Shown: piece by piece, positions 2,081 through 27,196 of the stretch | Layout: every line of letters starts with the position of its first letter | Numbering within the stretch: position 1 is the first letter of the stretch | From: a virus | Taxonomy: Duplodnaviria; Caudoviricetes | Length of the DNA: 28,387 bases | IMG/VR virus record: IMGVR_UViG_3300047562_000517 | Span: 1-28,387 of that record | Reading direction: 5' to 3' (one strand) | Position numbers and translations under genes: made by a program | The notes under the pieces: model-generated | The model's input: the letters and a program-made list of their open reading frames with translations, nothing else | Told to the model about the DNA's origin: nothing | The model's database searches: none

Positions 2081-4499
2081 GTCAGTTGTAAAAAGTTATT
2101 TTCCTAGTCAAGTAGCTAGTGACTTAGAAAAAGTTACCCCAGAGTATGGGTTGAAAGTCGCTAAAGCTATAGAACATGAGTGGTTTAAAAGAGACTCAGG
2201 TACTAATAGGTTTTATAACAATCAAAACACGTTTCACAGAAGAAGGCTTTACGCTAGAGGTGAACAATCAATACAAAAGTATAAAGATGAATTGTCTATT
2301 AATGGTGATCTATCTTACTTAAACTTAGACTGGAAACCAGTTCCAATTATACCAAAATTTGTTGATATAGTTGTAAACGGTATAAGTGAAAGAACCTTTG
2401 ATATTAAAGCTTTCTCTCAAGATCCTTATGGTATTGAAAAAAGAACTGCTTACATGGAGTCTGTTTTAAGAGACATGCAAACAAAAGAGCTAAGTAATTT
2501 TGCAATGGAGGCTTTTGGCGTTAATCTCTTTGAAAATCCTCAAGACAAGATACCAGAGAATACAGAGGAACTCGAGTTACACATGCAGTTAAACTATAAG
2601 GAATCAGTTGAAATCGCAGAGGAACAAGCCATAAACACAATACTTGAATCCAATAGATACGAATTAATAAGAAAAAGAGTTAACTATGATTTAACTGTTT
2701 TAGGTATAGGTTGTGCAAAAACAACATTTAATAAATCAGAAGGCATAAAAGTAGAATATGTTGATCCTGCTGATATTATTTATTCGTATACAGATTCACC
2801 TTATTTTGAGGATATTTATTATGTCGGTGAAATAAAAACAATACCTATAAACGAGCTTAAAAAACAATTTCCACATCTAGACGAAGAGCAATTAGAAGAT
2901 CTAACCAAACAAGGTATTCAAAATACCGACTTTTATCATAGAACGATAAATGAAACAAATAATGTAGATAAAAACTCTGTTCAAATACTTTATTTTAATT
3001 ACAAAACATACGCTAACGAAGTTTATAAAGTAAAACAAACAGGAACTGGTGCTTCTAAAATATTAATAAAGGACGATACTTTTAATCCACCAGCAGAAAT
3101 ACTTGACGATAAATTTGAAAAAGTTTCTAGATCAATAGAGGTTTTATACGAAGGAGCTTTAGTCTTAGGGACAAATACATTGTTAAAATGGGAGTTGGCT
3201 AAAAACATGATGCGCCCAAAGAGTGATTCTACTAAGGTTAGAATGAATTATTCTATAGTAGCACCTAGAATGTACAAAGGACGTGTTGAATCATTAGTAA
3301 GTCGAATTGAAGGTTTTGCTGATATGATTCAAATAACACATTTAAAGCTACAACAGGTTTTATCTAGAATGGTTCCTGACGGAATATATTTGGATGCTGA
3401 TGGACTTGCGGAAATAGATTTAGGAAATGGTACTAATTATAATCCTCAGGAGGCGCTTAATATGTTCTTCCAAACTGGTTCTGTTATTGGTAGATCCTTT
3501 ACTTCTGAAGGAGATTTAAATCCAGGTAAAATACCTATTCAAGAAATAGCATCTGGATCTGGTAATAATAAGATAGCATCGTTAATAAACACGTACAACT
3601 ACTATCTGCAAATGATTAGAGACGTAACTGGATTAAACGAAGCTAGAGATGGTAGTATGCCTGACGCTAAAGCGTTAGTTGGTGTTCAAAAAATGGCGGC
3701 TGCTAACAGCAACACAGCTACTAGACACATACTACAAGGAGGATTATTTATAACAGCTGAGATAGCAGAGGCGTTATCTTTGAGAGTATCTGATATATTA
3801 GAGTATTCTCCAACTAGAGATGCCTTTGTCCAGCAAATAGGTATACACAATGTGTCTACGCTAGAAGACGTAGACCAATTGCATCTACACGATTTCGGTA
3901 TTTTTATAGAGTTAACACCTGATGATGAAGAAAAAGCTATGTTAGAGAACAATATACAGATGGCTATATCGCAAGGCACTATAGATCTAGAAGATGCAAT
4001 TGATGTTAGAGAAGTTAAAAATTTAAAGTTAGCTAATCAATTATTAAAGCTTAGAAGAAAGAAAAAGCTACAAAGAGATCAATTGATTCAGCAACAAAAC
4101 ATGCAAGCTCAAGCAGAGGCGAATATTCAAGCTCAGCAAGCAGCTGCCCAACTTGAAGTGCAAAAACAACAAGCATTAACTGGTTCTCAAATACAATTAG
4201 AGCAAGCGAAATCTTCTTTAAGCTCTCAAAGATTAAAAGAAGAGGCTAACTTAAAGAAAGAGTTAATGTCATATGAATTTCAAATAAACATGGCTTTAAA
4301 AGAAAAAGAGGCTGAAGTTTATAAATCTAAAGAAAGTTTTAAAGAAGACAGAAAAGACGATAGAACTAAAATACAAGCAAGTCAACAAAGTCAACTTATA
4401 GAGCAAAGACAAAAAAACACCGGACCAAAAGATTTTGAATCATCAGGAAATGATATATTGAGTGGTGATTTCGATTTAGGTTCTTTTGAACCCAGGTGA
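2073..4499 (+). CDS. Portal protein, crAss-like
   Basis: 808 aa, follows terL. Contains PIIPKFVDIVVNG and VTGLNEARDG segments typical of crAss-like portals, and a Gln/Ala-rich C-terminal coiled coil (barrel). Confidence 0.88.
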   Translation: MAESVVKSYFPSQVASDLEKVTPEYGLKVAKAIEHEWFKRDSGTNRFYNNQNTFHRRRLYARGEQSIQKYKDELSINGDLSYLNLDWKPVPIIPKFVDIVVNGISERTFDIKAFSQDPYGIEKRTAYMESVLRDMQTKELSNFAMEAFGVNLFENPQDKIPENTEELELHMQLNYKESVEIAEEQAINTILESNRYELIRKRVNYDLTVLGIGCAKTTFNKSEGIKVEYVDPADIIYSYTDSPYFEDIYYVGEIKTIPINELKKQFPHLDEEQLEDLTKQGIQNTDFYHRTINETNNVDKNSVQILYFNYKTYANEVYKVKQTGTGASKILIKDDTFNPPAEILDDKFEKVSRSIEVLYEGALVLGTNTLLKWELAKNMMRPKSDSTKVRMNYSIVAPRMYKGRVESLVSRIEGFADMIQITHLKLQQVLSRMVPDGIYLDADGLAEIDLGNGTNYNPQEALNMFFQTGSVIGRSFTSEGDLNPGKIPIQEIASGSGNNKIASLINTYNYYLQMIRDVTGLNEARDGSMPDAKALVGVQKMAAANSNTATRHILQGGLFITAEIAEALSLRVSDILEYSPTRDAFVQQIGIHNVSTLEDVDQLHLHDFGIFIELTPDDEEKAMLENNIQMAISQGTIDLEDAIDVREVKNLKLANQLLKLRRKKKLQRDQLIQQQNMQAQAEANIQAQQAAAQLEVQKQQALTGSQIQLEQAKSSLSSQRLKEEANLKKELMSYEFQINMALKEKEAEVYKSKESFKEDRKDDRTKIQASQQSQLIEQRQKNTGPKDFESSGNDILSGDFDLGSFEPR

Positions 4500-4533
4500 T
4501 AATAGTAAATGTATAATTATATAATATTTTATC

Positions 4534-9789: not shown

Positions 9790-12700
9790 ATGCCAGAAAT
9801 AGTTAGAGGTTTTAGTCGAGGTAGGATGAATAAAGATCTCGATGAAAGAATTGTACCTAACGGCGAATATAGAGATGCTTTAAACTTAGAGATTTCAGCA
9901 TCAGAAAATTCAGATGTTGGAGCTTTTGAAAATATCAAAGGTAATGTTGAGTTAAAAAATAAAAGTTACAACTCAAGAACAGGTGTTTATCAAACTTGGG
10001 ACATTAGCAGTGGTGATTATATATCTAATCTAACTAACGTTAAATGTATAGGTTCTGTTAGAGACACGTCTGCAGAAAAAATATACTCGTTTATAACATC
10101 TAATGAAGCTGACGTTATTGCTGAGTATGATCAAGTTTCGGATTTAGTAAGACCGCTTGTCGTTGATACTAACAATGTTTTTGGGTTTTCAGAGGATTAC
10201 TTAATAACTGGTGTAAATGTTATTGAAAGCGTTATTTTTTGGACTGATAATAAAAATGAGCCTAAAAAAGTAATAATTAAAGATTGGCAAAATTCAACTA
10301 ACGATTTTTTAACACACTCTAAAATATATGAAAGAGATTTCATAGAACAAGATGTAACAGTTATAAAAAAATATCCTTTAAAAAGACCTTCTCTAACTAT
10401 GTCTGAGAGTGATAGAGATGGAAACATAAGGACGAACTTAAATTATGCTTTTGCTTCTTTAAACCAAAATGGTAATTACAATTCTTTGGATATTAACACA
10501 CCTCCATTTAATGTAACTTTTACAACATCTGTTGATTTTTTAGAAGGAGACACTCTTACTTTAGATCTTAACGATGACGCAAATGAATACAATGAACTTT
10601 TTTCTATAAGACTACAAGTTGTTGAGGTTATAAATATATACATATATAAAGTTAAAATACTTTCAATTCCAGACGAGATACCAACTGGAACACTTCCTTA
10701 TGACGTGGAACTTGATCTAGAAGATCCACTTTTTGAATATAAAATGCCTAGATTTTCTTATAGATATAAGTATTTAGACAATCAATATTCTACATTTGCT
10801 CCTTTCACCGAAGCAGCTTTTTTGCCTGGAGAACCATTTAAATACGATAGTTACCACGGTTACAACTTAGCAATGACCAATGTTGCTAGAATAATAAAAA
10901 TATCTAATTTTGTAACAAGCGATATACCACCTGATGTAAAAGAAATAGACATACTTTACAAAGAATCTAATAATAACTTGGTTTACAAGGTAGAATCTAT
11001 AGCTAAAAATTCTAATACATGGGTGGCTAATGAATATGTTATTGAAAGTGAAATAATTAGCTCTGTTATAGAGGCTAACCAAATATTGAGACCATGGGAT
11101 AATGTACCAAAAAAAGCTAAGTCTCAAGAACTTATAGGCAACAGACTTGTGTATGGTAATTATACACAGGGTTATGATATGACTAATAAGTTAGGTCAAG
11201 ATATAAACCATGATCTTCAAATACAGATTCAACACGATGAAGATACTTCTGACATTTCTATAGGAAATCCAAGTAAATCTATAAAGTCTCAAAGAACTTA
11301 TCAACTAGGTGTTTCTTATATAGATAAATTTGGTAGACAAACACCTGTTTTTACATCATCAAAAGCAACAAAGGCTTTGGCAAAAAGTTTTGCTCCTTTA
11401 AGAAATATAATAAAAGCTAAAGTAAACAACCTACCTCCATCTTGGGCAAAATATTTTAAATATTTTATAAAAGAAACATCGAATGAATATTATAATTTAG
11501 CGATGGATAGATGGTATGACGCTGAAGATGGTAATGTATGGCTGTCTTTTCCATCGTCAGACAGAAATAAAGTTTCAGAAGAAAGTTTTATAGAGTTAAA
11601 GAAAAAACACGCTTCAGACGTACCTGTAACTGAAAATGCTAAATATAAAATAATATCAATATCTAACGAAGCACCGACATTTATAAAAACAACTAAAAAG
11701 CTTAGAGGATCCGGAGAACACGATTGGTCGACAATACCCGGTCTTGTGGATGGGTTTCCATTACCAGGTAGAACTAATTTTTATATCAGAAACATTGTAT
11801 GGAAAAATCTTTTTTCTGGTTTAGAGAGTTCTAGTGGAAATTTATATGTAGCTATATCGTTTGGAAACAATACTTCTGACTATTTTGAAATAGCAAATAT
11901 AACAACATTAGGTAATCCTGATGACAATAATTCTATAGTTAAAATTGATTTAATTGAACCAATGGATGATACTATCGCTTTTACTTCAACAGATAGTACA
12001 TTCGCTGGAAGAATTTCTAATACTTTTGTAGTAACAATAAGAGAATCGGTAGAAGAAAACAAACCTGAATTTGATGGAAGATTTTTCGCTAAAATACACA
12101 AAGATGCTACTCTTCAACAAAATATAATAATAGAAGGTACTAATCCTAAATATGGTGTTATAAGATCTAAAAATGTATATGCTAGGAGTTCTAATAGAGA
12201 AAACGTTGTGCACTGGTGGTTTTTTGATTACGCTAGACCACATCCAATTAACGGACATAGTCCGGATTGGCATTATGAAAATCAAGGTTTAGTTTTTGAG
12301 CCACATGAATATGGTTGGGGTTGCGTTGCAGGACAAGATAAATTTGATATAACTTGGCATGGATTTGGGGAAACGCAATCACACGCGTTCTGTGATAGAC
12401 ATTGGTCTATATGGTCTAATTGGGACACTGATAATGCTAATGAAAGACCTCAAAAGGATTTTAGCGATGCGTTAAAAGCAGTTGGTACTTTATTTAGATT
12501 TGTTGGAGATCCTAATGAAGAGGTATACGAAATAAAAAAAGTGTTTAGAACTTTTTACACCAACTCTAATAGAAGTATAGATTGTTTTGGCTCAGGTAGG
12601 AAGTGGTATAGAAGATCTATACGATATAGTATAAAAGTTGACAGACCTATGACATGGGTGCCACCTATAGGTGTTGATAGCGGAAATAACTATGGAATAA

Positions 12701-14229
12701 TAGAGATATTGCAAAATGTAAACAACTTAGGTAACAAAGCAGAGTTTGCTACTGAAAATCCAGCAATATGGGAAACTGAACCAAAAGAATCTGCTGAGCT
12801 AGATATTTACTATGCTGCTAGCGATGTTTATGATATATCAGAATTAAACGATGAGAAGCAGTTAGAATGGCATAACTGCTGGAGTTTTGGAAATGGAGTT
12901 GAATCAAACAGAATAAGAGATGATTACAACGCGGTTTTATTAGATAAGAACCCAATTGTATCAGCTGTTTTAGAAGAACCATATCAAGAAGAACTAAAGG
13001 GCTCTGGTTTGATATATTCGAACATATTTAATTCAACATCGGGTATAAACGGCTTAAATCAATTTATACAAGCTGAAAAAATAACAAAAGATCTTAATCC
13101 TAGTTATGGTACAATCCAAAAACTACACGCTAGAGATACTGATCTAATTTGTTTAACGGAAGATAAATGTTTTAATATACTAGCTAACAAAGATGCACTT
13201 TATAATGCTGATGGTAATTCAAACGTAACTTCTAACTTTAACGTTTTAGGGCAAGTAACACCATATGTTGGAGAATTTGGTATATCTACAAATCCGGAAT
13301 CTTTTGCAACATACGGATTTAGATCTTATTTTTCTGACAGAAACAGAGGAACTGTTTTAAGGCTTTCTAGAGATGGCATAGAAGAGATAGCTGCAAAAGG
13401 TATGGGGGATTTCTTTTCTGACAATCTACCATACTCTAAATCAATTATAGGAAGTTATGACGACGTCAACAACTCTTACAATATAACTTTAAACGCGCTT
13501 TCTCCAGAATGGCAAAAAAAGTTAGAAACAGGAGTTTTTGATAGAACGAATTGTAATATACCTGATGACCAAAGCGATAATATTACAGCTACAACTTTAA
13601 CATTTAAAGAAGATGTAGATGGTTGGGAAAGTAGAAAATCTTTTATACAGGAAAGCGGTTTAAGTTTAAACGGAGAATATTATACTTTTAAAAATGGTAC
13701 AATATGGAAACATAGAGCTAATAATAATTATAATACATTTTATTGTATTAAATATGACAGCTCTTTAAACTTATTGTTTAATGAAGAATCTAATAATGTC
13801 AAGGTTTTTAAAACATTAAATTATACTGGATCAAAACCGCGTAATTATATATATAACGTTTCTGGAACAAAAAGATATTCATTAGCCGAAATACAAGCTG
13901 ATTCTTTAATTCCGACAAACGAGACTATCGAACCTGGTTGGTATACAAACTGGATAGCAACAGATTTGCAAGAAGGAAGTTTAAAAACTTTTGTAAATAA
14001 AGAAGGTAAATATTATAACTATATAAAAGGTTTATCAACATATTTTGATGACAATTGCGACAATAATATTGATTCCAATGAGTTTTCTGTACAGGGAATA
14101 GGTAGAGCGACGGTGACTGGCAATACGCGAAGCGGCTTTAATGTGCATTTATACATAGATAACACTTGTTTTATAAACAACTATAACGTTCACTTATATG
14201 TGAGCGCTGATTGTTCTGAAGTAGGGTAG
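9790..14229 (+). CDS. Tail stabilisation / muzzle (nozzle) protein
   Basis: 1479 aa, beta-rich. N-terminus GRMNKDLDERIVPNGEYRDALN, plus GNRLVYGNY, FGNGVESNRIRDD and GEFGISTNPES segments characteristic of crAss-like stabilisation proteins. Confidence 0.75.
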   Translation: MPEIVRGFSRGRMNKDLDERIVPNGEYRDALNLEISASENSDVGAFENIKGNVELKNKSYNSRTGVYQTWDISSGDYISNLTNVKCIGSVRDTSAEKIYSFITSNEADVIAEYDQVSDLVRPLVVDTNNVFGFSEDYLITGVNVIESVIFWTDNKNEPKKVIIKDWQNSTNDFLTHSKIYERDFIEQDVTVIKKYPLKRPSLTMSESDRDGNIRTNLNYAFASLNQNGNYNSLDINTPPFNVTFTTSVDFLEGDTLTLDLNDDANEYNELFSIRLQVVEVINIYIYKVKILSIPDEIPTGTLPYDVELDLEDPLFEYKMPRFSYRYKYLDNQYSTFAPFTEAAFLPGEPFKYDSYHGYNLAMTNVARIIKISNFVTSDIPPDVKEIDILYKESNNNLVYKVESIAKNSNTWVANEYVIESEIISSVIEANQILRPWDNVPKKAKSQELIGNRLVYGNYTQGYDMTNKLGQDINHDLQIQIQHDEDTSDISIGNPSKSIKSQRTYQLGVSYIDKFGRQTPVFTSSKATKALAKSFAPLRNIIKAKVNNLPPSWAKYFKYFIKETSNEYYNLAMDRWYDAEDGNVWLSFPSSDRNKVSEESFIELKKKHASDVPVTENAKYKIISISNEAPTFIKTTKKLRGSGEHDWSTIPGLVDGFPLPGRTNFYIRNIVWKNLFSGLESSSGNLYVAISFGNNTSDYFEIANITTLGNPDDNNSIVKIDLIEPMDDTIAFTSTDSTFAGRISNTFVVTIRESVEENKPEFDGRFFAKIHKDATLQQNIIIEGTNPKYGVIRSKNVYARSSNRENVVHWWFFDYARPHPINGHSPDWHYENQGLVFEPHEYGWGCVAGQDKFDITWHGFGETQSHAFCDRHWSIWSNWDTDNANERPQKDFSDALKAVGTLFRFVGDPNEEVYEIKKVFRTFYTNSNRSIDCFGSGRKWYRRSIRYSIKVDRPMTWVPPIGVDSGNNYGIIEILQNVNNLGNKAEFATENPAIWETEPKESAELDIYYAASDVYDISELNDEKQLEWHNCWSFGNGVESNRIRDDYNAVLLDKNPIVSAVLEEPYQEELKGSGLIYSNIFNSTSGINGLNQFIQAEKITKDLNPSYGTIQKLHARDTDLICLTEDKCFNILANKDALYNADGNSNVTSNFNVLGQVTPYVGEFGISTNPESFATYGFRSYFSDRNRGTVLRLSRDGIEEIAAKGMGDFFSDNLPYSKSIIGSYDDVNNSYNITLNALSPEWQKKLETGVFDRTNCNIPDDQSDNITATTLTFKEDVDGWESRKSFIQESGLSLNGEYYTFKNGTIWKHRANNNYNTFYCIKYDSSLNLLFNEESNNVKVFKTLNYTGSKPRNYIYNVSGTKRYSLAEIQADSLIPTNETIEPGWYTNWIATDLQEGSLKTFVNKEGKYYNYIKGLSTYFDDNCDNNIDSNEFSVQGIGRATVTGNTRSGFNVHLYIDNTCFINNYNVHLYVSADCSEVG

Positions 14230-14285: not shown

Positions 14286-16961
14286 ATGAGTCATACAACA
14301 ACAATAGGTAATTTTTCAGTACAATCAATTGATTTTGAAGTACCACAAGGTGACACAATATCAAGTGTTCAGCCAATAGCGACGCTGATACTTGTGCCAG
14401 ATAGTGGCTATCAAATAGACGCTAATGATTTTTTTTACATATCTGGTCCTTCTCAAGTAGCAAGCGCTGTTTTTACTCAAAGCGGGAATAATGTTATATG
14501 TATTGTTACATTCGACACCAATTACGTGATGCCTGGTAACGATGTCGATATACCAATATGTATATCAGGAAATGCAACACCACTTCAATATAGTCTTTCT
14601 GGTGTTGTAGAATTAATAGCTGATTCTCACGTAACACCGCTATCTGGCAACACAGCTTATTCTGCTGCAGGTGGAAATGGAGAAATAGTTCAAGCTTTTA
14701 CTTTTACAGTTAGTGCTGATAGTGGTTATTTTTTCTCTTCAGCACCGCAAGGCGCTATAACAACTGGCGTTGTTGCCGATTATTCAATAACATCTTCAAA
14801 TGTTTATGATTCAAATGGTAACTTAACTTCAGTTACATTTACTGGAAATTATACTTTTGGAAGTAATAATGTTACAGGCAACGTGTTTACGGTTATAGCT
14901 AATGTTAAAGAAATACCTGTTTTAGTTAGAGAAATAACTTCTTACAGTATAAATACTAGTAATCTATCTGGAAACTTTAATACCACTAGAAACATGAAGA
15001 TCTACGGTAGTCCAGGTGCTTTATTCTCATTGACAGTCGTGAATGAAGACGGTACTAGCATTCTAGGTTCTACCTTATCAAACGTAGTAATACCACTAAG
15101 TGGTGTTTATTCGTTTAATATAACATTCCCAGCTGTTACCGACAACGATCATTACGACTTTGTTTTAACTGGTAATTTAGCGACAACCTTTGATACACCA
15201 TCTGGTCAACCATCAATATTTACTATAAATCAATACTTAGACATAACGGTTTCTTATGGATTAACATCTACGGATCCGAATCTTTCTTTACCTAGTAACA
15301 TATCTTACACGTATCACCCTCTCGAAGAGTTAGAGCCCGGTGATTCAAATTACGCTTTTCAATTAATATTTCAAGTTACTTCTGGTTCTGAGATAACAGT
15401 CGGTACTCCCCCATTGCCATCAGATTTTAGTAATACAGACCCACTTAACAACGGTGGGACCGACATAAATATAGAGTCTGTTATAACTGAATTGTCAGCC
15501 AACTCACAAATTCTAACTATAACGGTAGATGGTTTTGTGCTAGAGACAGGTGTAGATAACGTATTAAGTCAATTAAACTTAGATTCTTTTGTTCAAACAA
15601 ACAGACCTCCAACAGCTGCTAATGTAATAAAAACAATAGTTGAAGACGAGATTAATCCAAGCAATCTAGTAATACAACTTTTAGGTAGTGATTTAAATGG
15701 AGATTCTTTAGTTTACAGCATAACTTCACTACCACTAAATGGCGATATATATGCGCCTACGGATACAACTTTTCAAACACCATTGGGAACAGGGCTATTG
15801 TTAAGCGGTTGGAGTTCTGTTTTATATAAACCAGACGCTAACTTCGACGGTGTTGATGATTTCACATATAAAGTAAATGATGGTGAGGTTGATTCTAATG
15901 TAGCCTCTGTTTTTATAACAGTTACCCCTATTAACGATGCTCCAATTATAACGAGCACAGCGCCTCAGTTCATTGGTGTCGCGGGTGGAACATATATATA
16001 TAACTTTACATATTCAGACGTAGATCACACTTACCCAGAAGTTACAATAAGTACTCAATCTAGTCTTCCAGTTGGGTGGACGCTAACGGATAATCAAAAT
16101 GGTACCGGGACATTAACTGGTCCTGTTCCAGCTGGGTTAACAACAATAGTTTTAATTGCTACAGATCCCTTAGGTACATCTGACTCAGAAACGATAAACG
16201 TTAGCGCTGCTTACGACATTTTAACTAAAATGGAGTTCGTAGTTAGTTATAGAAGTACCCCTATAAGCGCATCAGTAGCTACTGGACAATCACCTAAAAC
16301 AACGTCTGCTATAAACTTATCAGCAAAACCGAGCGGAGTTGCTGGCCACAGTTGCAACGATGCTGATTTTATATTGCTAGCAGAAACTCAAGATTCAAAT
16401 AACAATACGATTAGATTTATAATAGGTAGATCAGCCTTGAACAACACCGGCACAACTCAAGCTAATTCAACTTCTTTCAACCTAACAGATGCGGCTTGGC
16501 AATTGGTAACTTTACCTTTGTTTTCGAACAGGACAACAAGTGGTTCTGATACTGTACCAAACAACTTTATTGACATAAACAGCGATGTGTATGATGAGAG
16601 CAATCTCGTACAATCACCTTACAGCGCTAGTAATCCACAAACATATTATGTTAGCGGGGCAATAAGTAATATTGATCGTAAAAATTATTTTACAATAAAT
16701 AATACATTAGCCGCGCAAATGGCAGCGGCGACCGCAACAGGTGTATTTACACTTAGACTTTCTTTAGACTCATTTAGTTTAGTATCAGGGACTTATTACG
16801 CGTGGGCACATGCGGAATCAGCTTGGTTACAAGTGTTTAAAGAAAATTCAGCCGGAACAAATCAAGAAGAGGTTTTAGATTCTAATGGTAATAGTTTTGG
16901 AGTAACGAGTGCTAGTAATGTTTCGATTAATATATTCACAGGCGCAGTAACAGTAACTTAA
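14286..16961 (+). CDS. Tail-associated adhesin/fibre-like protein with Ig-like (Big_9/cadherin-like) domains
   Basis: 891 aa, Ser/Thr/Gly/Asn-rich. NRPPTA...GSDLNGDSLVYSI...YKPDANFDGVDDFTYKVNDG...VTPINDAPII is a Big_9/tandem-95-type repeat. It is followed by a He_PIG/cadherin-like unit (SDVD...LPVGWTL...GTLTG...ATDPLG). Confidence 0.72.
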   Translation: MSHTTTIGNFSVQSIDFEVPQGDTISSVQPIATLILVPDSGYQIDANDFFYISGPSQVASAVFTQSGNNVICIVTFDTNYVMPGNDVDIPICISGNATPLQYSLSGVVELIADSHVTPLSGNTAYSAAGGNGEIVQAFTFTVSADSGYFFSSAPQGAITTGVVADYSITSSNVYDSNGNLTSVTFTGNYTFGSNNVTGNVFTVIANVKEIPVLVREITSYSINTSNLSGNFNTTRNMKIYGSPGALFSLTVVNEDGTSILGSTLSNVVIPLSGVYSFNITFPAVTDNDHYDFVLTGNLATTFDTPSGQPSIFTINQYLDITVSYGLTSTDPNLSLPSNISYTYHPLEELEPGDSNYAFQLIFQVTSGSEITVGTPPLPSDFSNTDPLNNGGTDINIESVITELSANSQILTITVDGFVLETGVDNVLSQLNLDSFVQTNRPPTAANVIKTIVEDEINPSNLVIQLLGSDLNGDSLVYSITSLPLNGDIYAPTDTTFQTPLGTGLLLSGWSSVLYKPDANFDGVDDFTYKVNDGEVDSNVASVFITVTPINDAPIITSTAPQFIGVAGGTYIYNFTYSDVDHTYPEVTISTQSSLPVGWTLTDNQNGTGTLTGPVPAGLTTIVLIATDPLGTSDSETINVSAAYDILTKMEFVVSYRSTPISASVATGQSPKTTSAINLSAKPSGVAGHSCNDADFILLAETQDSNNNTIRFIIGRSALNNTGTTQANSTSFNLTDAAWQLVTLPLFSNRTTSGSDTVPNNFIDINSDVYDESNLVQSPYSASNPQTYYVSGAISNIDRKNYFTINNTLAAQMAAATATGVFTLRLSLDSFSLVSGTYYAWAHAESAWLQVFKENSAGTNQEEVLDSNGNSFGVTSASNVSINIFTGAVTVT

Positions 16962-17295: not shown

Positions 17296-17350
17296 TATTT
17301 GGTGATAAAGTGTAATAATAATAATGATAATATAGTAAAAAAATAAAATT

Positions 17351-17959
17351 ATGATTCCAATTGGAGCAGCGTTACAAGGTATACAAGGCCTAGCTGGAAT
17401 AGCTGGAGGTATTATTGGCAGCGGTAAAAGAAAAAGAGAGCAACGTAAAGCACAAGAAGAGTATAACATGAACAAGCAAGCTTATATGGAGCTTGACACA
17501 TCTAATGTGTATAAAAACATGGAAAATGTTTACGAAGATCTTACTGTAAACACTCAAGCGGCAGATTTTGCAGCACAACAACAGCAACAAAGTTTGGCTA
17601 ACACCATGCAGGGGATGCAAGGCGCTGCTGGTGGATCTGGGATAGCAGCTTTAGCTCAAGCTATGGCCAGTCAACAATCTCAAAATCTACAGCAAGCATC
17701 GGCTAGTATCGCTGAGCAAGAGTCTGCTAATGAAATGGCTAAAGCTAATATGGCTGGCCAACTTCAAACCATGGAAGCTAAAGGAGAATTAATATCTAGA
17801 GCTCAAGAACAAGAGAAAACAGAAACACTTTTAGGTATGTCTCAACAAAGATTAGCAGCTGCTAACCAAGCTAGGCAACAAGCAACAGCTGGCATACTTG
17901 GTGGTGTTGGAGATGTTATAGGTGGGGCGGCTGGAATTTACGCTGAAATGGCTAGATAA
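17351..17959 (+). CDS. Putative ejection (internal virion) protein
   Basis: 202 aa, Ala/Gln/Gly-rich coiled coil with Gly-rich hydrophobic N- and C-termini, like podophage DNA-injection proteins. Follows the tail genes. Confidence 0.6.
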   Translation: MIPIGAALQGIQGLAGIAGGIIGSGKRKREQRKAQEEYNMNKQAYMELDTSNVYKNMENVYEDLTVNTQAADFAAQQQQQSLANTMQGMQGAAGGSGIAALAQAMASQQSQNLQQASASIAEQESANEMAKANMAGQLQTMEAKGELISRAQEQEKTETLLGMSQQRLAAANQARQQATAGILGGVGDVIGGAAGIYAEMAR

Positions 17960-17972
17960 AAAAAAATAAGAT

Positions 17973-19412
17973 ATGGCTAATAGAGATTTAATAGCACAAC
18001 AAGGTTTAATATATCAAAGTAGATATTATGATCCATCTCTTTCTTTTGAGCAACCTTTCGCAAGAGCACAGAGTATGGTTGATAATATTTTAGCTAGAAA
18101 AAAGAGAGAAAAAGCTTTAGTTGAATCTAAAGTGGCTAATTATATTGATAACATGGCCGAGCCATTAAACGTGGCTAAAATACCACCTAAATATAGAGAT
18201 TCTGTTAACAAGTTTTTGATACAAAAAAGAAATGAGTATGCTCAAGCCGCTAGAGTTGCTAGTAGATACAGTCCAACTTCGACAGCTTACATGGAGTCTG
18301 TTTCTAAAATGAATTCAATATCATCTTCTTTTGAACAACTAAATAATCAATTTGAGATATTTAAAAAGATGAAAGATGAAGATCTCCCTGATTTTACAGG
18401 TAGATTAGTTTCTGATGGTAATAAAAATAGTGATCTAAATATCTTAACAGATGTTCTAACAGATAAGTACGATATTAGTATAACTGATAATGGAAATATA
18501 TCTTTTTATACTGGTGAAATATCTGAAAACGGTGAAAATATTATAATTCAAAAAGAATTAAACGATCTTCCAAAATATTTTAACAAAGATTTTAAAACTG
18601 CTAATAAGATAGTAGAACTCAACAAAAAAATATACAATGGTGGTAATAAATTAGATGCTGCTAGTAGAGACTTTTATAAGCTTCAGTTAAAATCTATGTT
18701 GTCAGAAGGCGGTAGAGAGACGGTGGTTTCTCTAGCAACAGATGATTTTATTATAGATGGAGGTTTAGGTTTAGATCCAGCTCTTTTGGAAGACGAATCT
18801 AGACACGATGAGCTAACAAACATTGTTGTAGAACAATATTTAAACATGTTTGATAAAACAGCTTCTGCAGGATTTAAATCAGCAGAATACAAAAGAAAAA
18901 AACAGCTATTGGGTGACGGTGGCGATGATTTCAAGTTAACCCCTTCGGTTCAGCAAGAAATAACACTTGGTCAAGGTAGAGCTGGTAAAGCAAGAGAAAG
19001 TGCACTAGCATTTGTTAATGCTGCAAAAGCTGGCAACTGGGAGCAGGTTGCTAAAAAGTACATAAACTTTGTTAAAGCTAATTCTTCTGGAACAGCTCGT
19101 GAAATGATAACTAGAGGTGAACACTTTAAGTTGTATGCAAATCAATTCGAAGGAGTGAGTAGAGATAAATTGATCAAAGACTATAGAGAAATATATCCAA
19201 AAGATCAATATATGTTTATATTAAATAAAGGGCAGGTTGATCCAGAATTTGATGATAGTTGGTCTGGATTTAATCCTTTCTCAAATTTATCTGATCCAAA
19301 CGCTGTGTACCAAGAGTTACTTTATGACATAGGATTCTCTGACAATGCTGTTGGTTACTTTGTATCCGGAGGAGGCACTAGCTCTGACGAAGGGGTTTTA
19401 AACGTACAATAA
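17973..19412 (+). CDS. Putative ejection/cargo protein
   Basis: 479 aa with a helical N-half, located between the small ejection protein and the giant protein. No recognisable catalytic motif. Confidence 0.45.
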   Translation: MANRDLIAQQGLIYQSRYYDPSLSFEQPFARAQSMVDNILARKKREKALVESKVANYIDNMAEPLNVAKIPPKYRDSVNKFLIQKRNEYAQAARVASRYSPTSTAYMESVSKMNSISSSFEQLNNQFEIFKKMKDEDLPDFTGRLVSDGNKNSDLNILTDVLTDKYDISITDNGNISFYTGEISENGENIIIQKELNDLPKYFNKDFKTANKIVELNKKIYNGGNKLDAASRDFYKLQLKSMLSEGGRETVVSLATDDFIIDGGLGLDPALLEDESRHDELTNIVVEQYLNMFDKTASAGFKSAEYKRKKQLLGDGGDDFKLTPSVQQEITLGQGRAGKARESALAFVNAAKAGNWEQVAKKYINFVKANSSGTAREMITRGEHFKLYANQFEGVSRDKLIKDYREIYPKDQYMFILNKGQVDPEFDDSWSGFNPFSNLSDPNAVYQELLYDIGFSDNAVGYFVSGGGTSSDEGVLNVQ

Positions 19413-19426: not shown

Positions 19427-19728
19427 ATGCTAGAAAAGCTTTATCAAGTACTTTACGATAAAAAACTATTTACTCAAGATTTTGCTAAATTTAAAAATGC
19501 TTGGCAAGATGAAGAATACAAGAAAAAAGTATTCAACGTAGTGAGTGAGAAAAAACTCTTCACGCAAGATTACGAAACATTTGTAAATTCTTATATAGAG
19601 GGAAAGCAACAAGGCGATGTTGCAACGGATGCAGCGACATCGTCTCAAAAAGATTCGGCATCCAACTCGGATCTATATTCATCGGATTGGATTATAGACC
19701 CAAAAACAGGAAAGTTTGTAGAAAATAA
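19427..19728 (+). CDS. Predicted 100-aa -1 frameshift product of the giant gene
   Basis: First 60 codons of the giant ORF, then -1 frame ATRRCCNGCSDIVSKRFGIQLGSIFIGLDYRPKNRKVCRK to TAA at 19726-19728. Confidence 0.6.
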
Positions 19729-22700
19729 AACACCTATAGACCAAACTAACGAATTCCAATTAGGTCCGACGCTGACCGAAAAATCCACGTATACAGACAA
19801 AGATAAACCTATTGATCCTGACTATTACGAAAGTTCTGGTTTAGGTTTTGGTGATCCAAGAACATACGAACAACAAGTTAAAGACTATGCTGAGGCTATG
19901 GACAAAGTCTTATCAGGTAAAGGGCAATGGGAGTCGATACTGAATAAAACTGTAGAGGAAAGATATAAAATAGCTTCTAAATTAATAAAAGCTCCAGTTG
20001 GATCACCATCTGATATCAGTGATTCTTATTACGATTACTGGAGACAGATAAATGTAGATGGATTTAAAGATTCTAAAAAAATACTTGAACCTTTGTTTTT
20101 AGATAAAAGATCGCTAAAAGATGATTATCTAGAAAGAAAAGTAGGCAATAAGTTATTTGAAAAAGATTTTAAACAAAGAATACAAGAAGGATTAACAGAA
20201 GACGATCTTATAACTCAAGCTGATAAAATCATTGGTGACATGATTCACGAAAGTGACTATATGTCAAAAGAATTTTTACCTTATTTTTATTCTAAAAACG
20301 AAGAGTTGTTTTATAATAAACAACTTGAAATGATAAACGCTATAGAGGGCGATTTTGTTAGCGATGCTGATCTATTGAATATAGAAGAAAAAATGAACAA
20401 GTTTCAATTAGATCTTTTAGAGGAAGAACTAAAAAAAGATAGAGGATATAATGAACTTGTAGCATCTATATTGCAGGTTGTTGGTGAGGATTTAAGTGTT
20501 GACATAAGAAAGTTTAATAAGTCGAAATTATTACCAGATTGGATAGAGGGTAATGCTATTTTAGAAGGTGTATTTAAAACAACAAAGGCTTTTGAATTGG
20601 GTTGGGTAAACACTGAAATGTTGCATAGATCTAAAGATTTTGCTAATATTAAAAACTTTTTAAAAGCAGTAGAGAGTGGCGAATTAAATGAACCTCAATT
20701 AATTGCTTTAGCTAAAGAGACTTTAGACGAGGCTGATATTATAAAGTTATATCCAAGACACTCTATGTCAATGAAAGAAGCGTTTGCTAGAGATGAAGCA
20801 TCTAATTATTTATCAGAGGGAGAATACGAGAATCTTTGGATTGGTGAAGATCCGATACCTTATTTGAAAAACAAAATAAAAGAGCACAATAAGTATTTCT
20901 TAAATCAATTATCTAATAGCCAGAGGTTACAAAAAGAATTAGACATTCTTGATAGCGCTAGATTATTTGACGAAAATGGCGTTACTTTTAAAGATATAAA
21001 ATTAATGGTTGGTGAACAGCTTCCACAAATGGTTGCTGCTATTGCGACTTTTGGCGGTAGTACTTATTTACAAGAAGCTGGTGGTGTTTATATAGAATCA
21101 TTATATAGAATAGCTGAGCATAAACACGGTATGGCTTTTGCATCTGCTAGCGATAAAGAAAAGCAACAAATGCTTTTTGATATTATAGATGCTGGTGAAG
21201 ATGATCCAGATACTGCTATTACTGTTGGTGTGGTAAATGCTGGTTTGGATTTTGCGTCAAATATATTTGTCGTAACAAAAGGCGCTAAAGTTATACCAAA
21301 ACAAGCTTGGAGAGCTTTATTAAGAGGGGAATTTAAAAAAGCAGTAAATAAAGTAGGTGTAAAAAACATGGCTGTTGATGCGTTAAAAATATCTACAGCA
21401 GAATCTATAACTGAGAGTTTACAAGAAATAAACTCTATGGTTGGCGCTAATGTTAGCACTGGTATTTATAAATTTGATCCAACTAGAGTAAAAGAAGGTG
21501 GCGCACAAGGGTTTTTAAGTAGCCTTATATTTTTTGGACTTGGTAAAGGTAGATCTTTGATAAACTTTACCGGAGAACAAATAGCTTTGAAAACTAGGTG
21601 GACTAGTAAAGATCATGTTCTATCTATGATAAAAGCTGAAAAGGCTAGGGTCAAAAGAGATTTAAAAGATGGTAAAATAAACAAAAAAGAAGCTGAAGAG
21701 CAAATTAGTAACATTAACGATGCTACTGATGTCTTGATAGACGAAGGTCTATATCAAGTTGGCCCTGAAAATCAAACAGCTGCAATAGATAAAGCGAATG
21801 ATTATGTTTCTAAAAAACGAGCAGTTCAAAAGAAAGAACAGGATTTAAAAGAGGCTAAAGAAAACAAGTCTTCAACAGAAGAAGATATTAAATATAGAGA
21901 AGAGCAACTTGAAGTAGCGTTAAATGACTTAGCAGATTCAAAATACGAGATGCAAAAAGTTCAAATTGAAGACTCTTATACAAAGAACAAAGGAAAAGCA
22001 GCTCGTAGAGTTAATGAGTCTACAGAAGGACCAATGGCTAACAAAAGAGTTTTTACTTTTAAAACCAGAAAAGAAGCCGCTGCATTTGTTAAGAGATATA
22101 AAATAACCGTAGACGATCAAATTCAAGCCATGCTTGATGGTAAAGCTAACGGTGTAGCTTTACAGTCTGGTATAAAATACAAGGGTAAAGACGTAATACC
22201 AGCATTGATCGTTGATCAAAATATCAAAGAAAATATACGGAATAGTAGTAGAAAAAAAGATGGTGCTTTAATCTCAGCATTCGCTGAAAGTCACGAGGTA
22301 ACACATTTTATATTAGACTCTATAGATCCAAAGATAGTTTCTGATATGGTTAATCAGTTGAAAGCTGATTTAAAAAACTCAGGCGACTTGAAGACATCGC
22401 TAATGCTTGATTTTATAAATCAAACACAAGCTAACTATAAGTCTAGAGGCGTTGATCAACAAACACTAAATCAAGAGTTTTTAACAGCTATGAGCGATTA
22501 CCTTCAAGTACAACAAGCCCTTGATGTTAAATCACCACTAGCAGACGCTTTTTCTAGAATGGGTAAAGCTATAAACAAAGCTATATTTGGCGCTACTGGT
22601 GCTGAGATTGACCTTTCAACTCCCTCAGCAGTCTTTAGTTTCTTAAAAAACTGGAACAAGTTTTTAAATAGCAAAGGTACTATAAAAGTAAGGGGAGCTG

Positions 22701-25700
22701 TTGAAGTAGATGAAGTTACCGGTGAAACAAAATCACGAGCGCAAATAACCCTTGAAGAACAAAAACAAGCTATTATTGCTGAGCAAAAAGCATTGATTTC
22801 ATCTAAAGATGATCCTGCTATTGCTAAGCAAATGCAAGAAAATATAGAAAAAATAAAAGAGCTTAATAAGGCTATACAACTAGAGAGAGACTTGGCTGAT
22901 CAAGGTAAGTTTCCAACTGGTATATCTCAAAAAGCAAAAGACATTACTAGAAAAAACAAGTTGATAGTAGATGAGGCTTATGATCCAAAAACATCTCCAG
23001 AAGTTAAAAGACAAAAGTTCAAAGAGCTTTACGATTTAAACAGAGGTATAATAGAAGGCACTGTAAATAAACAGTTTAATCCAAACATCGAGAGTAATTT
23101 AACTTTAGAGGATTTTAGACAAGCATATAATCTTGAGTTCTTTAACATACTTGAAAACCAATACGATCCATCTAAAGGCCCTCTAGGTGCTTATATGAAT
23201 ACATATTTACCATTAAGACAAGGTAATATATTAAGAGAGTTGATCGGATCTAGAGAAATGATGTTTACCGAGGACGCAACATCCGCTGTTGGTAACAAGC
23301 AAATAGGTTATACGCCTGATTATGGCAACTTTACACAAGAAGAGTATGTACAGCAAATGGTTAACACTATGGAGACTCTTGGTTTTACACCAGAGCTTCA
23401 AAACGTAGTTAAAGAAGCTGTTGTTAAAATTCTTGGTGGTAGACTGGATATATCTTCAAGAAACTTCAAAACAGAACTATCTCAGTCGTTAATGACTATG
23501 TTAAAAAGTGAGATACAAACTAAAGTACTTGGTAGTAAACTTAAAAATAACTTTTTGGGCATGAAATACCCAGATTTTATGGCTAAACACTGGGAGGATA
23601 TATACGCTATAATGCCTATTGATGCTATAAATAAAAGGTTTTCTACTCAAACAAAGCAAGAAAAGGCTAATAATGTACCACATCCTTTTATATATAAATT
23701 CACAGATGAATCTGGTAAACAAATTAGAGATACTAGGATAGAAGATAATACTGGAGTTGGTAGAGGTAAGACAAAAAAGAGAGTTGTAACTCAACAAGAA
23801 TTCTTAGATTTCTTCTTTGGAGACAACGTAGGCGGTAGTACGCAGGGTACTAGAAAGGATACATTAGCTGAGATGATTGCTGAGCAGGCTGGCTTTGACG
23901 TGTTTAGTTATCTTTTAACTAATGATCCTGAAGTAACCGAGTTGTTTAGAGGTAGACAAGAATTATTTGGTGAAATTGTAACAGAAGACACTATAGATAG
24001 ACTTCAAAGAGAAATAAACAGACATGACGGATCTAGAAACGCTAGTTCTAGAGCTCAAATTGTTATAGACTCAGCAAACTATCACGGTTTAACTATAGAA
24101 TATATTAACACTATATTTGACGACGTTAAAAAAGGTGAGATTATAGATTACAAATCTAAATCAATTAACATGTTTAGAAACGACCTTTTAGATGTTTTAA
24201 GATTAGATGACGCGGTAGTTGATGTTGACTTGTATTTTAATACTTATAATTCTAGAGTTTCTGAGGACTTTGAGATTAGAGGTTTTAATTTAGAGCTTGG
24301 TGATAAAAACGCTATGATTACCGTTGCTGAAAAAGACGGTAGAAAAAATCCATATCAAAACAATTTTAAAACAAAGTTAAACCTAGACAGAGCAATACTT
24401 ATACCTGGTCAGTACGCTGATGGATTAATAGAAAGACAGGGTGCTATAGATATAAGCATAGACTTGATGAAAGATTACAGTTGGTTTGATAAACCTTCTG
24501 TTACTACTAAGTATTTAGGAAAATTTTTCCAAGAAGAAGGATATATAACTCAATCAGAATTAGAAAACAATTATAGCGCAGAAGCATTAAGATCTTTGTT
24601 GGTTAAAAAAGGTTATGATCATTTAAGCTTTTTTGATGAATCAACCGAAACTGAAAGATTTATAATCTTGAATAAAGAAGCTATAAGTAGAGCTAGTGAA
24701 ATAGCTTTTAATGCTAAATTAGATGAACTTATAAATCCTAGTAGAGCTCAGTTGTCTTTAGAAGGAACTATGGGTAATATCATAGAACAAAAAACAAAAG
24801 GTAAAATAAAATCCAAAGAACAAATTACAGCGGCAGCTGCTAACGTAATGCAAAAAGATAGATCTTTTATATCTAAAATAACAGGTACATTTAACTATTT
24901 ACCTTATAACGCTGAAGACTTTATAGGATTGACTAGAGTTTTCACGCCTGCTGGAAAAGATGGTGACGCGGCTATAAAATTTATAGAAGAAAGACTTTTA
25001 GAACCATATTATCAAGGTCAACAACAGTTTAGAACTTGGAAGCAAAATCTAAATATTCAATATAATAGGTTTTTTGATAGAGCTGAATATGTTAAAAAAA
25101 TAGATTCTAAAGGTATGCCTAGCTTAAGCAAGCAGACTGTAGAAGGTGAAATTACTATTAGAGCAAAAAGATCTAAAATAGCCATGGTAGAAGAACTTGT
25201 TAAAAGTAAATCTATAACTAGAACGGAAGCCGACGCTATGATAGCTGATATAAATAGGTTTAAATTTAAAAAATCAAGTTTACAACAACCAGTAAACGTA
25301 AAAGGTAAAACTTTTACCGCGGAACAAGCTGTTAGAGTGTATTTGTTTTATTCTGCTGGAGAAGATATTGATCCTTCTTTGATATCAGTAGAAGAAGTCA
25401 AAGGTCTTGTTGATTTCGTTAAAGATCCAAATAACGTGGAATTTTTATTGTTTGCTAGTTCTTTAAGAGGCTTAGTTGGTAGAACAAGATCAAAATCTAC
25501 TGGTGATTACTATATTAAATATAATGACGATATAATTAATAACACGGTAAGTCACGATATATACAATCACGCTGAAAGCGAACGCAAAGTGTTTTTTGAG
25601 AAATTTAAAAATAACTTCGAAAACATATTCACAAATAAGAACATGTTAAAGCTTGAAGCACTTTACGGTAGTAACTATATAAAAGAGCTTAATAGTTCTT

Positions 25701-27196
25701 TTAGAAGAATGTATACTGGTAAAAACGAAACAACTAGAGCAGCTAATCCAGTTGAAACAGCTATAATGGGTTGGACAAATGCTTCTGTTAACTCTATAAT
25801 GTTCTTAAACTTCAAGTCCGCTGCGCTTCAGTTAATATCGTTTGCTAACTTTATAAACTGGACTGATAACAATATTGTTTCTGCTAGTAAAACACTTGCT
25901 AACCCAAAACAGTTTGCTCAAGACTTCGCTATGTTATATAACAGTAGGTATTTGACAAATAGAAGAGGTGGTTTACAGTTTGATATAGAATCTTCAGCTG
26001 TTGAAAAACTTCTTAGAGAATCTATGGCTGGTGAAAAAGATACGTTCTCGGCTTTTAAAAGATTTTACGCTCAACTAGTTAAGTTTGGTTATTTACCAAC
26101 TAGAACAGCTGACTCTATTGCAATAGCTTTTGGAGGCGCTACTTTTTATAGAAATAGATTAAATACATATATAAGTCAAGGACTAACAGAAACTCAAGCT
26201 ATCGAAAAGACAATGATAGACTTTGAGAGATTAGCTGAGGAGAGCCAACAGTCTAGTGATCCATCTAGAATATCTAGTATTCAAATAGGACCTTATGGTA
26301 GATTAGCCTTTGCATTCATGAACACTCCGTTCCAGTATGCTAGATTATCAAAAAGAGCTGCTTTAGATTTAATAAACGGAAGAGGTGATAGAAAAACAAA
26401 TTTATCTAAACTAACATATTATACTTTTGTTCAGTCTATATTCTTCTCTGCAGCTCAAAACTTGTTAAACGTATTTGATTTAATACCTTTATTCAAAGAC
26501 GATGATGAGGAAGAAGAGTTGACACCAGAAGAAAAAACATCTTACTTCTATGCCTTGAACTCTTGGATAGATGGTCAAATAAAAATGTTTGGTATTCCAG
26601 GACTTGGAGCTACAGTTATCAAAAACATGAAACTGTCTGATTATCAAGATGAATTGTTTAGAAATAAAGAAACCGGTGGATTTATAAAACCAAAAAGAAA
26701 AGAAGAAAACCAAATAATTAAAGATCTATTATCTTTTTCTCCACCTATTAGTTCAAAAGCACAACAGTTATCTAGCATAGATAAACTTAAAAAGTGGAAT
26801 ATAAACAAACAGAGAGCTGCTTATTATGGATTAGATGATTTCTGGTATTTATATCCTCAAGATCCTATTTGGGAAATTAGAGCAAGACAAGCTAACGTTT
26901 TTTTTAATATACCGCTAGATAGATTACATAGAAAACTAGAAAATATTTCTTTAGCACTAGATGAAGAAACCAAATTACACACTGATTTGCTGTTGCTTAT
27001 GGGTTATAGTAAATATGTTCAATTGCCGAAAGAAAAATGGGATTTACCTTATCCTGAAACAAAAACTAGGGACTTTAGAATGTTCTTAAAAAGATTAGAA
27101 AGAGAGAAGAAGAAAAATTCAAAATCTAGGGCTGGTAGAAAAAAATTCCAATCAAAGCAAGAATATTTAAACTATTTAAACGAAAAACGTAAATAA
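19427..27196 (+). CDS. Giant multidomain (polyvalent) virion ejection protein: hydrophobic helices, zincin, sigma region-2-like, ART-like, helical C-terminal domain
   Basis: 2589-aa ORF in the position of the large ejection proteins of podophages. HEVTH at 22292-22306, ELYDLN...EDFRQ...YDPSKG at 23006-23239, KKGYDH...ETERFIIL at about 24605-24670. Confidence 0.7.
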   Translation: MLEKLYQVLYDKKLFTQDFAKFKNAWQDEEYKKKVFNVVSEKKLFTQDYETFVNSYIEGKQQGDVATDAATSSQKDSASNSDLYSSDWIIDPKTGKFVENKTPIDQTNEFQLGPTLTEKSTYTDKDKPIDPDYYESSGLGFGDPRTYEQQVKDYAEAMDKVLSGKGQWESILNKTVEERYKIASKLIKAPVGSPSDISDSYYDYWRQINVDGFKDSKKILEPLFLDKRSLKDDYLERKVGNKLFEKDFKQRIQEGLTEDDLITQADKIIGDMIHESDYMSKEFLPYFYSKNEELFYNKQLEMINAIEGDFVSDADLLNIEEKMNKFQLDLLEEELKKDRGYNELVASILQVVGEDLSVDIRKFNKSKLLPDWIEGNAILEGVFKTTKAFELGWVNTEMLHRSKDFANIKNFLKAVESGELNEPQLIALAKETLDEADIIKLYPRHSMSMKEAFARDEASNYLSEGEYENLWIGEDPIPYLKNKIKEHNKYFLNQLSNSQRLQKELDILDSARLFDENGVTFKDIKLMVGEQLPQMVAAIATFGGSTYLQEAGGVYIESLYRIAEHKHGMAFASASDKEKQQMLFDIIDAGEDDPDTAITVGVVNAGLDFASNIFVVTKGAKVIPKQAWRALLRGEFKKAVNKVGVKNMAVDALKISTAESITESLQEINSMVGANVSTGIYKFDPTRVKEGGAQGFLSSLIFFGLGKGRSLINFTGEQIALKTRWTSKDHVLSMIKAEKARVKRDLKDGKINKKEAEEQISNINDATDVLIDEGLYQVGPENQTAAIDKANDYVSKKRAVQKKEQDLKEAKENKSSTEEDIKYREEQLEVALNDLADSKYEMQKVQIEDSYTKNKGKAARRVNESTEGPMANKRVFTFKTRKEAAAFVKRYKITVDDQIQAMLDGKANGVALQSGIKYKGKDVIPALIVDQNIKENIRNSSRKKDGALISAFAESHEVTHFILDSIDPKIVSDMVNQLKADLKNSGDLKTSLMLDFINQTQANYKSRGVDQQTLNQEFLTAMSDYLQVQQALDVKSPLADAFSRMGKAINKAIFGATGAEIDLSTPSAVFSFLKNWNKFLNSKGTIKVRGAVEVDEVTGETKSRAQITLEEQKQAIIAEQKALISSKDDPAIAKQMQENIEKIKELNKAIQLERDLADQGKFPTGISQKAKDITRKNKLIVDEAYDPKTSPEVKRQKFKELYDLNRGIIEGTVNKQFNPNIESNLTLEDFRQAYNLEFFNILENQYDPSKGPLGAYMNTYLPLRQGNILRELIGSREMMFTEDATSAVGNKQIGYTPDYGNFTQEEYVQQMVNTMETLGFTPELQNVVKEAVVKILGGRLDISSRNFKTELSQSLMTMLKSEIQTKVLGSKLKNNFLGMKYPDFMAKHWEDIYAIMPIDAINKRFSTQTKQEKANNVPHPFIYKFTDESGKQIRDTRIEDNTGVGRGKTKKRVVTQQEFLDFFFGDNVGGSTQGTRKDTLAEMIAEQAGFDVFSYLLTNDPEVTELFRGRQELFGEIVTEDTIDRLQREINRHDGSRNASSRAQIVIDSANYHGLTIEYINTIFDDVKKGEIIDYKSKSINMFRNDLLDVLRLDDAVVDVDLYFNTYNSRVSEDFEIRGFNLELGDKNAMITVAEKDGRKNPYQNNFKTKLNLDRAILIPGQYADGLIERQGAIDISIDLMKDYSWFDKPSVTTKYLGKFFQEEGYITQSELENNYSAEALRSLLVKKGYDHLSFFDESTETERFIILNKEAISRASEIAFNAKLDELINPSRAQLSLEGTMGNIIEQKTKGKIKSKEQITAAAANVMQKDRSFISKITGTFNYLPYNAEDFIGLTRVFTPAGKDGDAAIKFIEERLLEPYYQGQQQFRTWKQNLNIQYNRFFDRAEYVKKIDSKGMPSLSKQTVEGEITIRAKRSKIAMVEELVKSKSITRTEADAMIADINRFKFKKSSLQQPVNVKGKTFTAEQAVRVYLFYSAGEDIDPSLISVEEVKGLVDFVKDPNNVEFLLFASSLRGLVGRTRSKSTGDYYIKYNDDIINNTVSHDIYNHAESERKVFFEKFKNNFENIFTNKNMLKLEALYGSNYIKELNSSFRRMYTGKNETTRAANPVETAIMGWTNASVNSIMFLNFKSAALQLISFANFINWTDNNIVSASKTLANPKQFAQDFAMLYNSRYLTNRRGGLQFDIESSAVEKLLRESMAGEKDTFSAFKRFYAQLVKFGYLPTRTADSIAIAFGGATFYRNRLNTYISQGLTETQAIEKTMIDFERLAEESQQSSDPSRISSIQIGPYGRLAFAFMNTPFQYARLSKRAALDLINGRGDRKTNLSKLTYYTFVQSIFFSAAQNLLNVFDLIPLFKDDDEEEELTPEEKTSYFYALNSWIDGQIKMFGIPGLGATVIKNMKLSDYQDELFRNKETGGFIKPKRKEENQIIKDLLSFSPPISSKAQQLSSIDKLKKWNINKQRAAYYGLDDFWYLYPQDPIWEIRARQANVFFNIPLDRLHRKLENISLALDEETKLHTDLLLLMGYSKYVQLPKEKWDLPYPETKTRDFRMFLKRLEREKKKNSKSRAGRKKFQSKQEYLNYLNEKRK
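19460..19570 (+). repeat. Tandem 30-aa-period protein repeat (KKLFTQD x2)
   Basis: KKLFTQDFAKF at 19460 and KKLFTQDYETF at 19550, exactly 90 nt apart. Confidence 0.8.
19600..19663 (+). promoter_or_regulatory. Predicted -1 programmed ribosomal frameshift signal (slippery heptamer plus H-type pseudoknot)
   Basis: In-phase G GGA AAG (19600-19606), 5-nt spacer, stem 1 19612-19623/19634-19645 (12 bp), stem 2 GGATGC 19627-19632 / GCATCC 19658-19663. Confidence 0.78.

Follow-up and report, generated by a model that had tools for sequence, protein, structure and literature searches.

A sigma-70 domain 2-like module in a giant cargo protein of flavobacterial phages, a candidate starter of early transcription at non-host promoters

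The giant cargo protein of an uncultured marine flavobacterial phage contains a domain that is very probably homologous to sigma-70 domain 2, real but strongly diverged, with profile and fold in agreement. The domain was analysed in a window of 28,387 nucleotides, which is the whole linear virus record (completeness estimated at 47%), and in the genomes of relatives. For their first transcripts, phages are known to rely on promoters of the host type, on a polymerase carried in the particle (N4, crAss-like phages) or on packaged modifiers, T4 Alt being one. The best explanation, held tentatively, is that an injected, self-released sigma-like module starts phage early transcription via the host RNA polymerase at non-host promoters. 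With the same reserve, a large marine flavobacterial phage group may use a third early route beside host-like promoters and virion RNA polymerases, based on a phage-only promoter with an unusual 21-bp spacer. If true, this would explain how an abundant uncultured marine phage group transcribes from non-host promoters without a polymerase.

The original prediction placed a sigma-70 region-2-like stretch at 23006..23239, and translation of these positions gives exactly the 78 residues it quoted, aa 1194-1271 of the ORF at 19427-27196. The sigma-2 identity of the stretch is upheld by the family profile and the fold, but its extent had to be revised, as the domain is larger and starts ~25 residues earlier. 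Profile, model and structural search place a sigma-70 domain-2-like fold, composed of a region-1.2-like helix and regions 2.1-2.4, at 22928..23245 (+ strand, aa ~1168-1273). In the model, the region-1.2-like helix lies at aa 1168-1184 and the structurally aligned range spans about aa 1169-1279. The proposed comparison with Sigma70_r2 (PF04542) gave no match for the single sequence but did give matches within the family, 3 of 38 members matching with a best value of 1.4e-6. Searches of the single protein and the segment against Pfam (including Sigma70_r2), PHROG and the NCBIfam sigma models gave no sigma match and stayed below every curated cut-off; weak CotJA and SID matches were dismissed as short chance matches. 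Because the single sequence matches no sigma model, support for the sigma identity comes from the family profile and the fold.

A search of aa 1151-1350 against 1.84 billion proteins gave 19 matches, of which one (P0015) was discarded as a repeat artefact and 18, in proteins of 967-3281 aa, were retained; the stretch is thus no chance resemblance. The 18 relatives keep the pattern L..N.G.I...v...EDF....EF..li..YdP..g.pFGAY....Lp.R and have a block in common at aa ~1165-1535, plus a C-terminal block. The profile of a 38-segment family, compared with 177,635 solved sequences, ranked SigE (E 2.7e-4), SigK (7.5e-4), SigB (2.3e-3), SigF and RpoD at the top, with similarity to sigma-70 domain 2 across region 2.1 and the YdP..g..laaY stretch. 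The profile of the whole protein against the PDB was dominated by designed helical proteins, with RpoD at E 0.59. AlphaFold (AF2) modelling gave a pLDDT of 89.5 for the domain alone and 75.7 for aa 1131-1540. In a structural search (VIA) of the model against 48,161 chains, the best 24 matches were all sigma factors, led by SigB (Z 9.3, r.m.s.d. 2.2, 90 residues) and including T4 gp55 (Z 8.1). Unrelated chains began at Z 6.9, and for a helical domain a Z of about 9 is a modest value. The closest solved structures, SigB (8x6g_H), SigK (8vjl_B), SigE (8b3z_A), SigA domain 2 (4x8k_A) and T4 gp55 (7d7d_F), have the same helical fold of regions 1.2 and 2.1-2.4 (Z 8.1-9.3, r.m.s.d. 2.2-3.2, 90-96 residues), but their identity to the cargo domain is only 7-16% and the cargo domain is embedded in a 2589-aa late-module protein. 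Foldseek returned no match at E<=0.001 in BFVD or the PDB; its best hit was an RpoS fragment with TM 0.60/0.72, but an E of 1.4.

The window carries terminase, portal, capsid-module and tail genes (PHROG matches), followed by genes of 202, 479 and 2589 aa. The capsid and portal proteins resemble those of Maribacter phage Panino, the elemo Flavobacterium phages and Cellulophaga phages (28-54%), the portal matches among the last being phi38:1 and phi13:2. This kinship is in line with the putative Flavobacteriaceae phages that PMC5332604 calls 'group 2', and the phage is of the phi38:1/elemo/Panino type of that group, not a crAss-like carrier of an RNA polymerase. GroEL (Cpn60 match) occurs in relatives, in the L098:380-2167 region and at L097:17450-18997 (G013), as reported for group 2 flavobacterial phages. 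A muzzle-type tail protein is encoded at 9790..14229 (+ strand; Pfam crAss_MUZ_C E 2.4e-7, above the cut-off; PHROG 14478) and marks a cargo-ejecting tail of the crAss-like podovirus type. The muzzle gene is separated from the cargo genes by a gene for an 891-aa Ig/cadherin-like (Big_9) protein (14286-16961), a probable surface adhesin.

The 202-aa and 479-aa genes (17351..19412, + strand) were assigned through synteny and weak phmmer matches within an 11-protein set, to phi38:1 gp99 (E 0.0012) and to phi13:2 gp124 (8.4e-4) and gp125 (0.0019), and their products are likely the two smaller ejection proteins. The 2589-aa gene (19427..27196, + strand) is the last large gene of the virion module and encodes a giant modular cargo protein of the ejection type. 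It occupies the same slot as the giants of phi38:1, phi13:2 and elemoA, in which a three-gene slot ends with a giant annotated as structural. Comparison with these three proteomics-annotated giants gave zero sequence match. Gene order and the crAss001 cargo model (PMC10172136) suggest that virions likely contain the 2589-aa protein and inject it.

The absence of an RNA polymerase catalytic motif, as originally predicted, was borne out: no DFDxD/DxDGD was found in the 2589-aa protein (by regular expression) or in its 479-aa neighbour (by eye). A search beyond the motif agreed, with no homologue of phi14:2 gp66 in the giant or in 25 long relatives (1983 ORFs); the best E values for gp66, gp65 and gp67 against this set were 0.65, 0.29 and 0.13. 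A DFDTD motif in G022 was rejected as a polymerase mark, as it belongs to the muzzle protein.

Structural modelling and sequence comparison indicate a modular layout of the giant. The sigma-2 domain is separated by a disordered linker from a helical domain of ~250 aa (23312..24061, + strand), ordered from about aa 1311 in the model and kept in most relatives. This domain has no Pfam, PDB or Atlas match; it takes the place of a recognisable sigma-3/4 in sigma-70 factors and is the putative second half of a released module. Searches of the 250 aa after sigma-2 gave no region-4 match, although a region 4 may still lie there; the places in the VIA list were filled by sigma-2 chains. The highly conserved C-terminal domain that defines the cargo family lies at 25304..27136 (+ strand, aa ~1960-2570). 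An HExxH motif (HEVTH, aa 956-960; 22292..22306, + strand), identified by regular expression as a zincin-type metallopeptidase signature, is found at the same place in most relatives. Pfam gave no peptidase match in the cargo family, and none of the LPD, MPTase and ART models matched at E<=0.001; from the motif and from the polyvalent proteins of PMC5512222, the assignment as a zincin-like protease is putative.

The tetrapeptide SRAQ occurs three times in the giant (corrected p about 0.0075), and all three copies are retained in a 45%-identical relative. Linker 1 (aa 1103-1106; 22733..22744, + strand) and linker 2 (aa 1541-1544; 24047..24058, + strand), putative cleavage sites ahead of and past the sigma module, bracket a ~440-aa module just after the HExxH motif that consists of a coiled lead-in, sigma-2, the disordered stretch and the conserved ~250-aa domain. 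Linker 3 (aa 1772-1775; 24740..24751, + strand) closes a variable module of ~230 aa (24059-24739, aa 1545-1772). A GYDH motif in this variable module is reminiscent of polyvalent ADP-ribosyltransferases; that reading, based on the GYD motif, was set aside, with no match in Pfam and the motif missing from several close relatives. Among non-redundant cargos, 27 of 44 with HExxH have a linker-like peptide ahead of the sigma domain, vs. 0 of 18 without the motif (Fisher p 2.6e-6, background 13%, with the linker pattern chosen after inspection of the data). This association, together with the self-processing proposed in PMC5512222, suggests that the sigma module is probably released by the giant's own zincin-like protease at the SRAQ linkers.

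Another reading is a late role of the domain in the producing cell, as an extra late sigma or a transcription brake during assembly, with removal of the domain before packaging. Processing before packaging has a precedent in P1 DdrB (PMC5512222). However, the stand-alone sigma of these phages, described below, is already at hand for late genes, and the 18 relatives without HExxH and linker keep the domain fused, so that there it would travel with the cargo. A late role is considered quite improbable.

The cargo family is large. When viral contigs were scanned with the C-terminal block, 575 of 599 candidates were confirmed and 80 loci returned, which gives a family of at least 575 stretches, with about 1,400 stored stretches estimated in total. 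An iterated profile finds the sigma-2 segment in 48 of the 84 ORFs that bear the C-terminal block and in none of the reversed decoys. No cultured family member was found, and neither the module nor the C-terminal domain had a tblastn match in 50,697 phage records. Conservation was analysed in 25 relatives, whose records measure 56-72 kb and reach a completeness of 90% or more in 23 cases. The cargo sigma-2 is recognised by profile in 16 of these (15 and G022); one record ends before sigma-2, and the other eight have a similar stretch in the slot that is recognisable by eye and position only. A pooled profile of nine divergent segments had no significant match (E 0.28), and another pooled set of divergent segments was weakly significant (E 1.7e-5 over 36 columns). 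The mean identity is 21% for the cargo sigma-2 (24 genomes), a figure that carries the uncertain alignment of the divergent members, 60% for the cargo C-terminal domain (22 genomes) and 66% for the stand-alone sigma-2. The positions that correspond to those reading the -10 element in bacterial sigmas vary across the cargo family; only Y1246, Y1256 and R1264 are near-constant.

Core-binding positions are also poorly conserved in the cargo sigma-2 (D1229 44%, N1205 43%). Together with the lack of a single-sequence profile match, this favours a repurposed or decaying sigma-2 fold that has no role at RNA polymerase and serves as an anti-sigma decoy, a single-strand DNA binder at genome entry or a structural spacer. 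However, the domain holds its slot across a family of hundreds with a high-confidence fold, the linkers track the protease motif, and ECF sigmas are similarly diverse and yet are all known to bind core. Such a repurposed fold is considered unlikely.

The window has neither an early region nor a stand-alone sigma, and the evidence on promoters therefore comes entirely from the relatives. The labels early, late and promoter follow from position and denote motifs at the level of sequence. The early motif has the consensus tTACA-N6-AtACG-N10-GATAATAT, with 138 relaxed instances in 22 genomes; its short form is TACA-N21-GATAATAT, usually with the inner ACG block. It has 96 matches vs. 3 for the backwards control in 31 records and is present in 21 of the 23 near-complete genomes. 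Of 90 strict copies, 87 share the strand of the stand-alone sigma gene and precede it by no more than 20 kb; the genes that follow the copies are small. The motif is absent from G021 and G025, most likely as these records lack the early region, according to the gene map of G021 and the end of G025 just upstream of the sigma gene. In G020 the motif has TACA and GATAAT but no ACG, and in G006 it reads TACG-N19-20-GTGATATTA; since these variants dispense with the full consensus, the core consists of two blocks 21-22 bp apart. The G006 genome, whose stand-alone sigma is the most diverged (44%), carries 10 copies of the variant TACG/TTCG-N19-21-GTGATA at G006:C1:47506-62847 (+) and is a natural test case of specificity. 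At G012:C1:65735 (+), an ATG lies 7 nt past the GATAATATA block, a position that would fit a leaderless transcript.

The late-type motif GTRAYnATA stands before 45 of 280 larger genes of the relatives, compared with 5.45 in shuffled and 4 in antisense controls, and the window has 13 matches vs. 5.95 expected. One copy (17312..17320, + strand) heads the cargo genes and a second (4496-4504) precedes a 399-aa gene. The early and late-type motifs have a GATAATA-like core in common. Host-type signals of the form TTG-N19-21-TAnnTTTG, which contain the host primary-sigma consensus TAnnTTTG (PMC9723704), show no excess in the relatives (164 vs. 172 in the control), and TAnnTTTG is found in 1 of 67 early upstream regions. 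It exceeds the control in Panino (19 vs. 7) and in the Manatee Spring record (11 vs. 3) and is not above controls in phi38:1, phi13:2 and elemoA. All five of these phages lack the cargo domain and, with it, both the stand-alone sigma and the motif cluster. Identity of the early motif with the middle promoter of phi14:2 was rejected, as the phi14:2 promoters read are of the TAnnTTTG type.

A separate protein of ~250 aa with regions 2 and 4, the stand-alone sigma, is encoded in 23 of the 25 relatives, and its region 2.4 is near-invariant. Directly upstream of its gene, 13 relatives (G007, G008, G010-G013, G015-G019, G024 and G027) carry a gene for a helix-turn-helix (HTH) protein of ~205 aa. The HTH genes heading the sigma operon are preceded by the early motif in 0 of 13 cases and by a conserved signal of their own, with TGTGAY in 10 of 13, which may be an operator or represent a third promoter type.

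The non-host early promoter-like signals need a reader. Since the early motifs come before the sigma gene and host-type promoters show no excess, a factor acting at time zero is needed. The simplest candidate is a sigma-like module that is injected, because neither a phage polymerase nor a host-type promoter set was detected and a starter is needed before phage protein synthesis. In the proposed sequence of events, the giant would be packed in the virion and injected at infection, its own zincin-type protease would cut the SRAQ linkers, and the freed module of ~440 residues would dock on the beta' clamp of the host RNA polymerase. The module may then read the early class, with the ~250-aa domain substituting for sigma-3/4, and the stand-alone sigma would subsequently read the GTRAYnATA class.

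The original proposal of an injected sigma-like factor is thus partly supported, but the stand-alone sigma competes seriously with the module for the role of early reader. Neither this second sigma nor the release of the module by a protease formed part of that proposal. The main objection to the module as early reader is that the cargo sigma-2 has an identity of 21% while the -10-like block of the motif hardly varies. Furthermore, one conserved sigma could read both classes through their common GATAATA-like core, region 4 was not found in the module, eight of the 25 domains were recognised by eye, and the motif does not track residues. No covariation was seen between cargo residues and motif variants: G014, G027 and G028 differ strongly in regions 2.3-2.4 with the motif unchanged, and these three genomes also break a link tried between N1258 and the GATATTA motif variants of G006 and G022.

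These observations favour an injected sigma mimic that binds the clamp helices without reading promoters, and either displaces or blocks the host primary sigma (shut-off) or tethers cargo modules, leaving both promoter classes to the stand-alone sigma after a first transcription leak. Such a role would account for a cargo domain that diverges quickly although the motif is invariant and the stand-alone sigma conserved, and host-takeover effectors are typical of polyvalent cargos (PMC5512222). However, the mimic leaves the first round of transcription unexplained, as host-type promoters show no enrichment and the early motifs are situated upstream of the sigma gene. The late class has the upstream TACR block in only 1 of 40 cases, so the architectures of the two classes differ. 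This combination of mimic and stand-alone sigma is possible, though on the doubtful side. Even so, a mimic of this kind, injected to seize or block the core enzyme, would represent a new type of effector for host takeover.

The giant resembles the polyvalent proteins with a zincin-like MPTase described by Iyer et al. 2017 (PMC5512222), which are likewise giant and modular, encoded among virion genes, carry HExxH and have been proposed to process themselves, and the relatives of the giant have variable enzymatic inserts as those proteins do; they differ in that sigma is absent from the main text of that paper. The phage has a muzzle-type tail and giant cargo genes closing the virion module in common with phi14:2 (gp66; 10.1101/2020.03.07.982082) and crAss001 (PMC10172136), and early transcription via an injected protein is plausible in all of them. 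However, the cargo family has neither the DFDxD motif nor a homologue of gp65, gp66 or gp67. According to the phi14:2 study, gp66 early transcripts have no common upstream motif (10.1101/2020.03.07.982082), whereas the group studied here has a strict early motif; the host-read phi14:2 promoters examined carry TAnnTTTG.

Phage-encoded sigma factors are known from SPO1 (gp28/gp34). Another is T4 gp55, a minimal sigma whose fold the cargo domain matches, and like these factors the module would redirect the host core to phage promoters. The group's own ~250-aa sigma seems to be of the type that PMC5332604 notes in group 2 Flavobacteriaceae phages. All of these are made as free proteins after infection, whereas the cargo sigma would arrive pre-made. 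The accessible text of a jumbo-phage review (PMC7824862) describes only free phage sigmas, and no description of a packaged sigma domain was found in a literature search that had most subscription journals outside its reach. Thus, the parts (sigma-2, polyvalent cargo, injected transcription machinery) are already known, and their combination did not appear in the literature searched.

Cargo genes of the relatives also carry swapped-in modules, among them a zeta-toxin-like/AAA_33 kinase and a glycoside hydrolase 108 lysozyme (L056:1286-12178, L032:4223-15085). In G016, the cargo gene lies in two overlapping frames of 1781 aa and 565 aa (L040:7988-14939) and the sigma gene is split too, reflecting either a frameshift or an assembly error.
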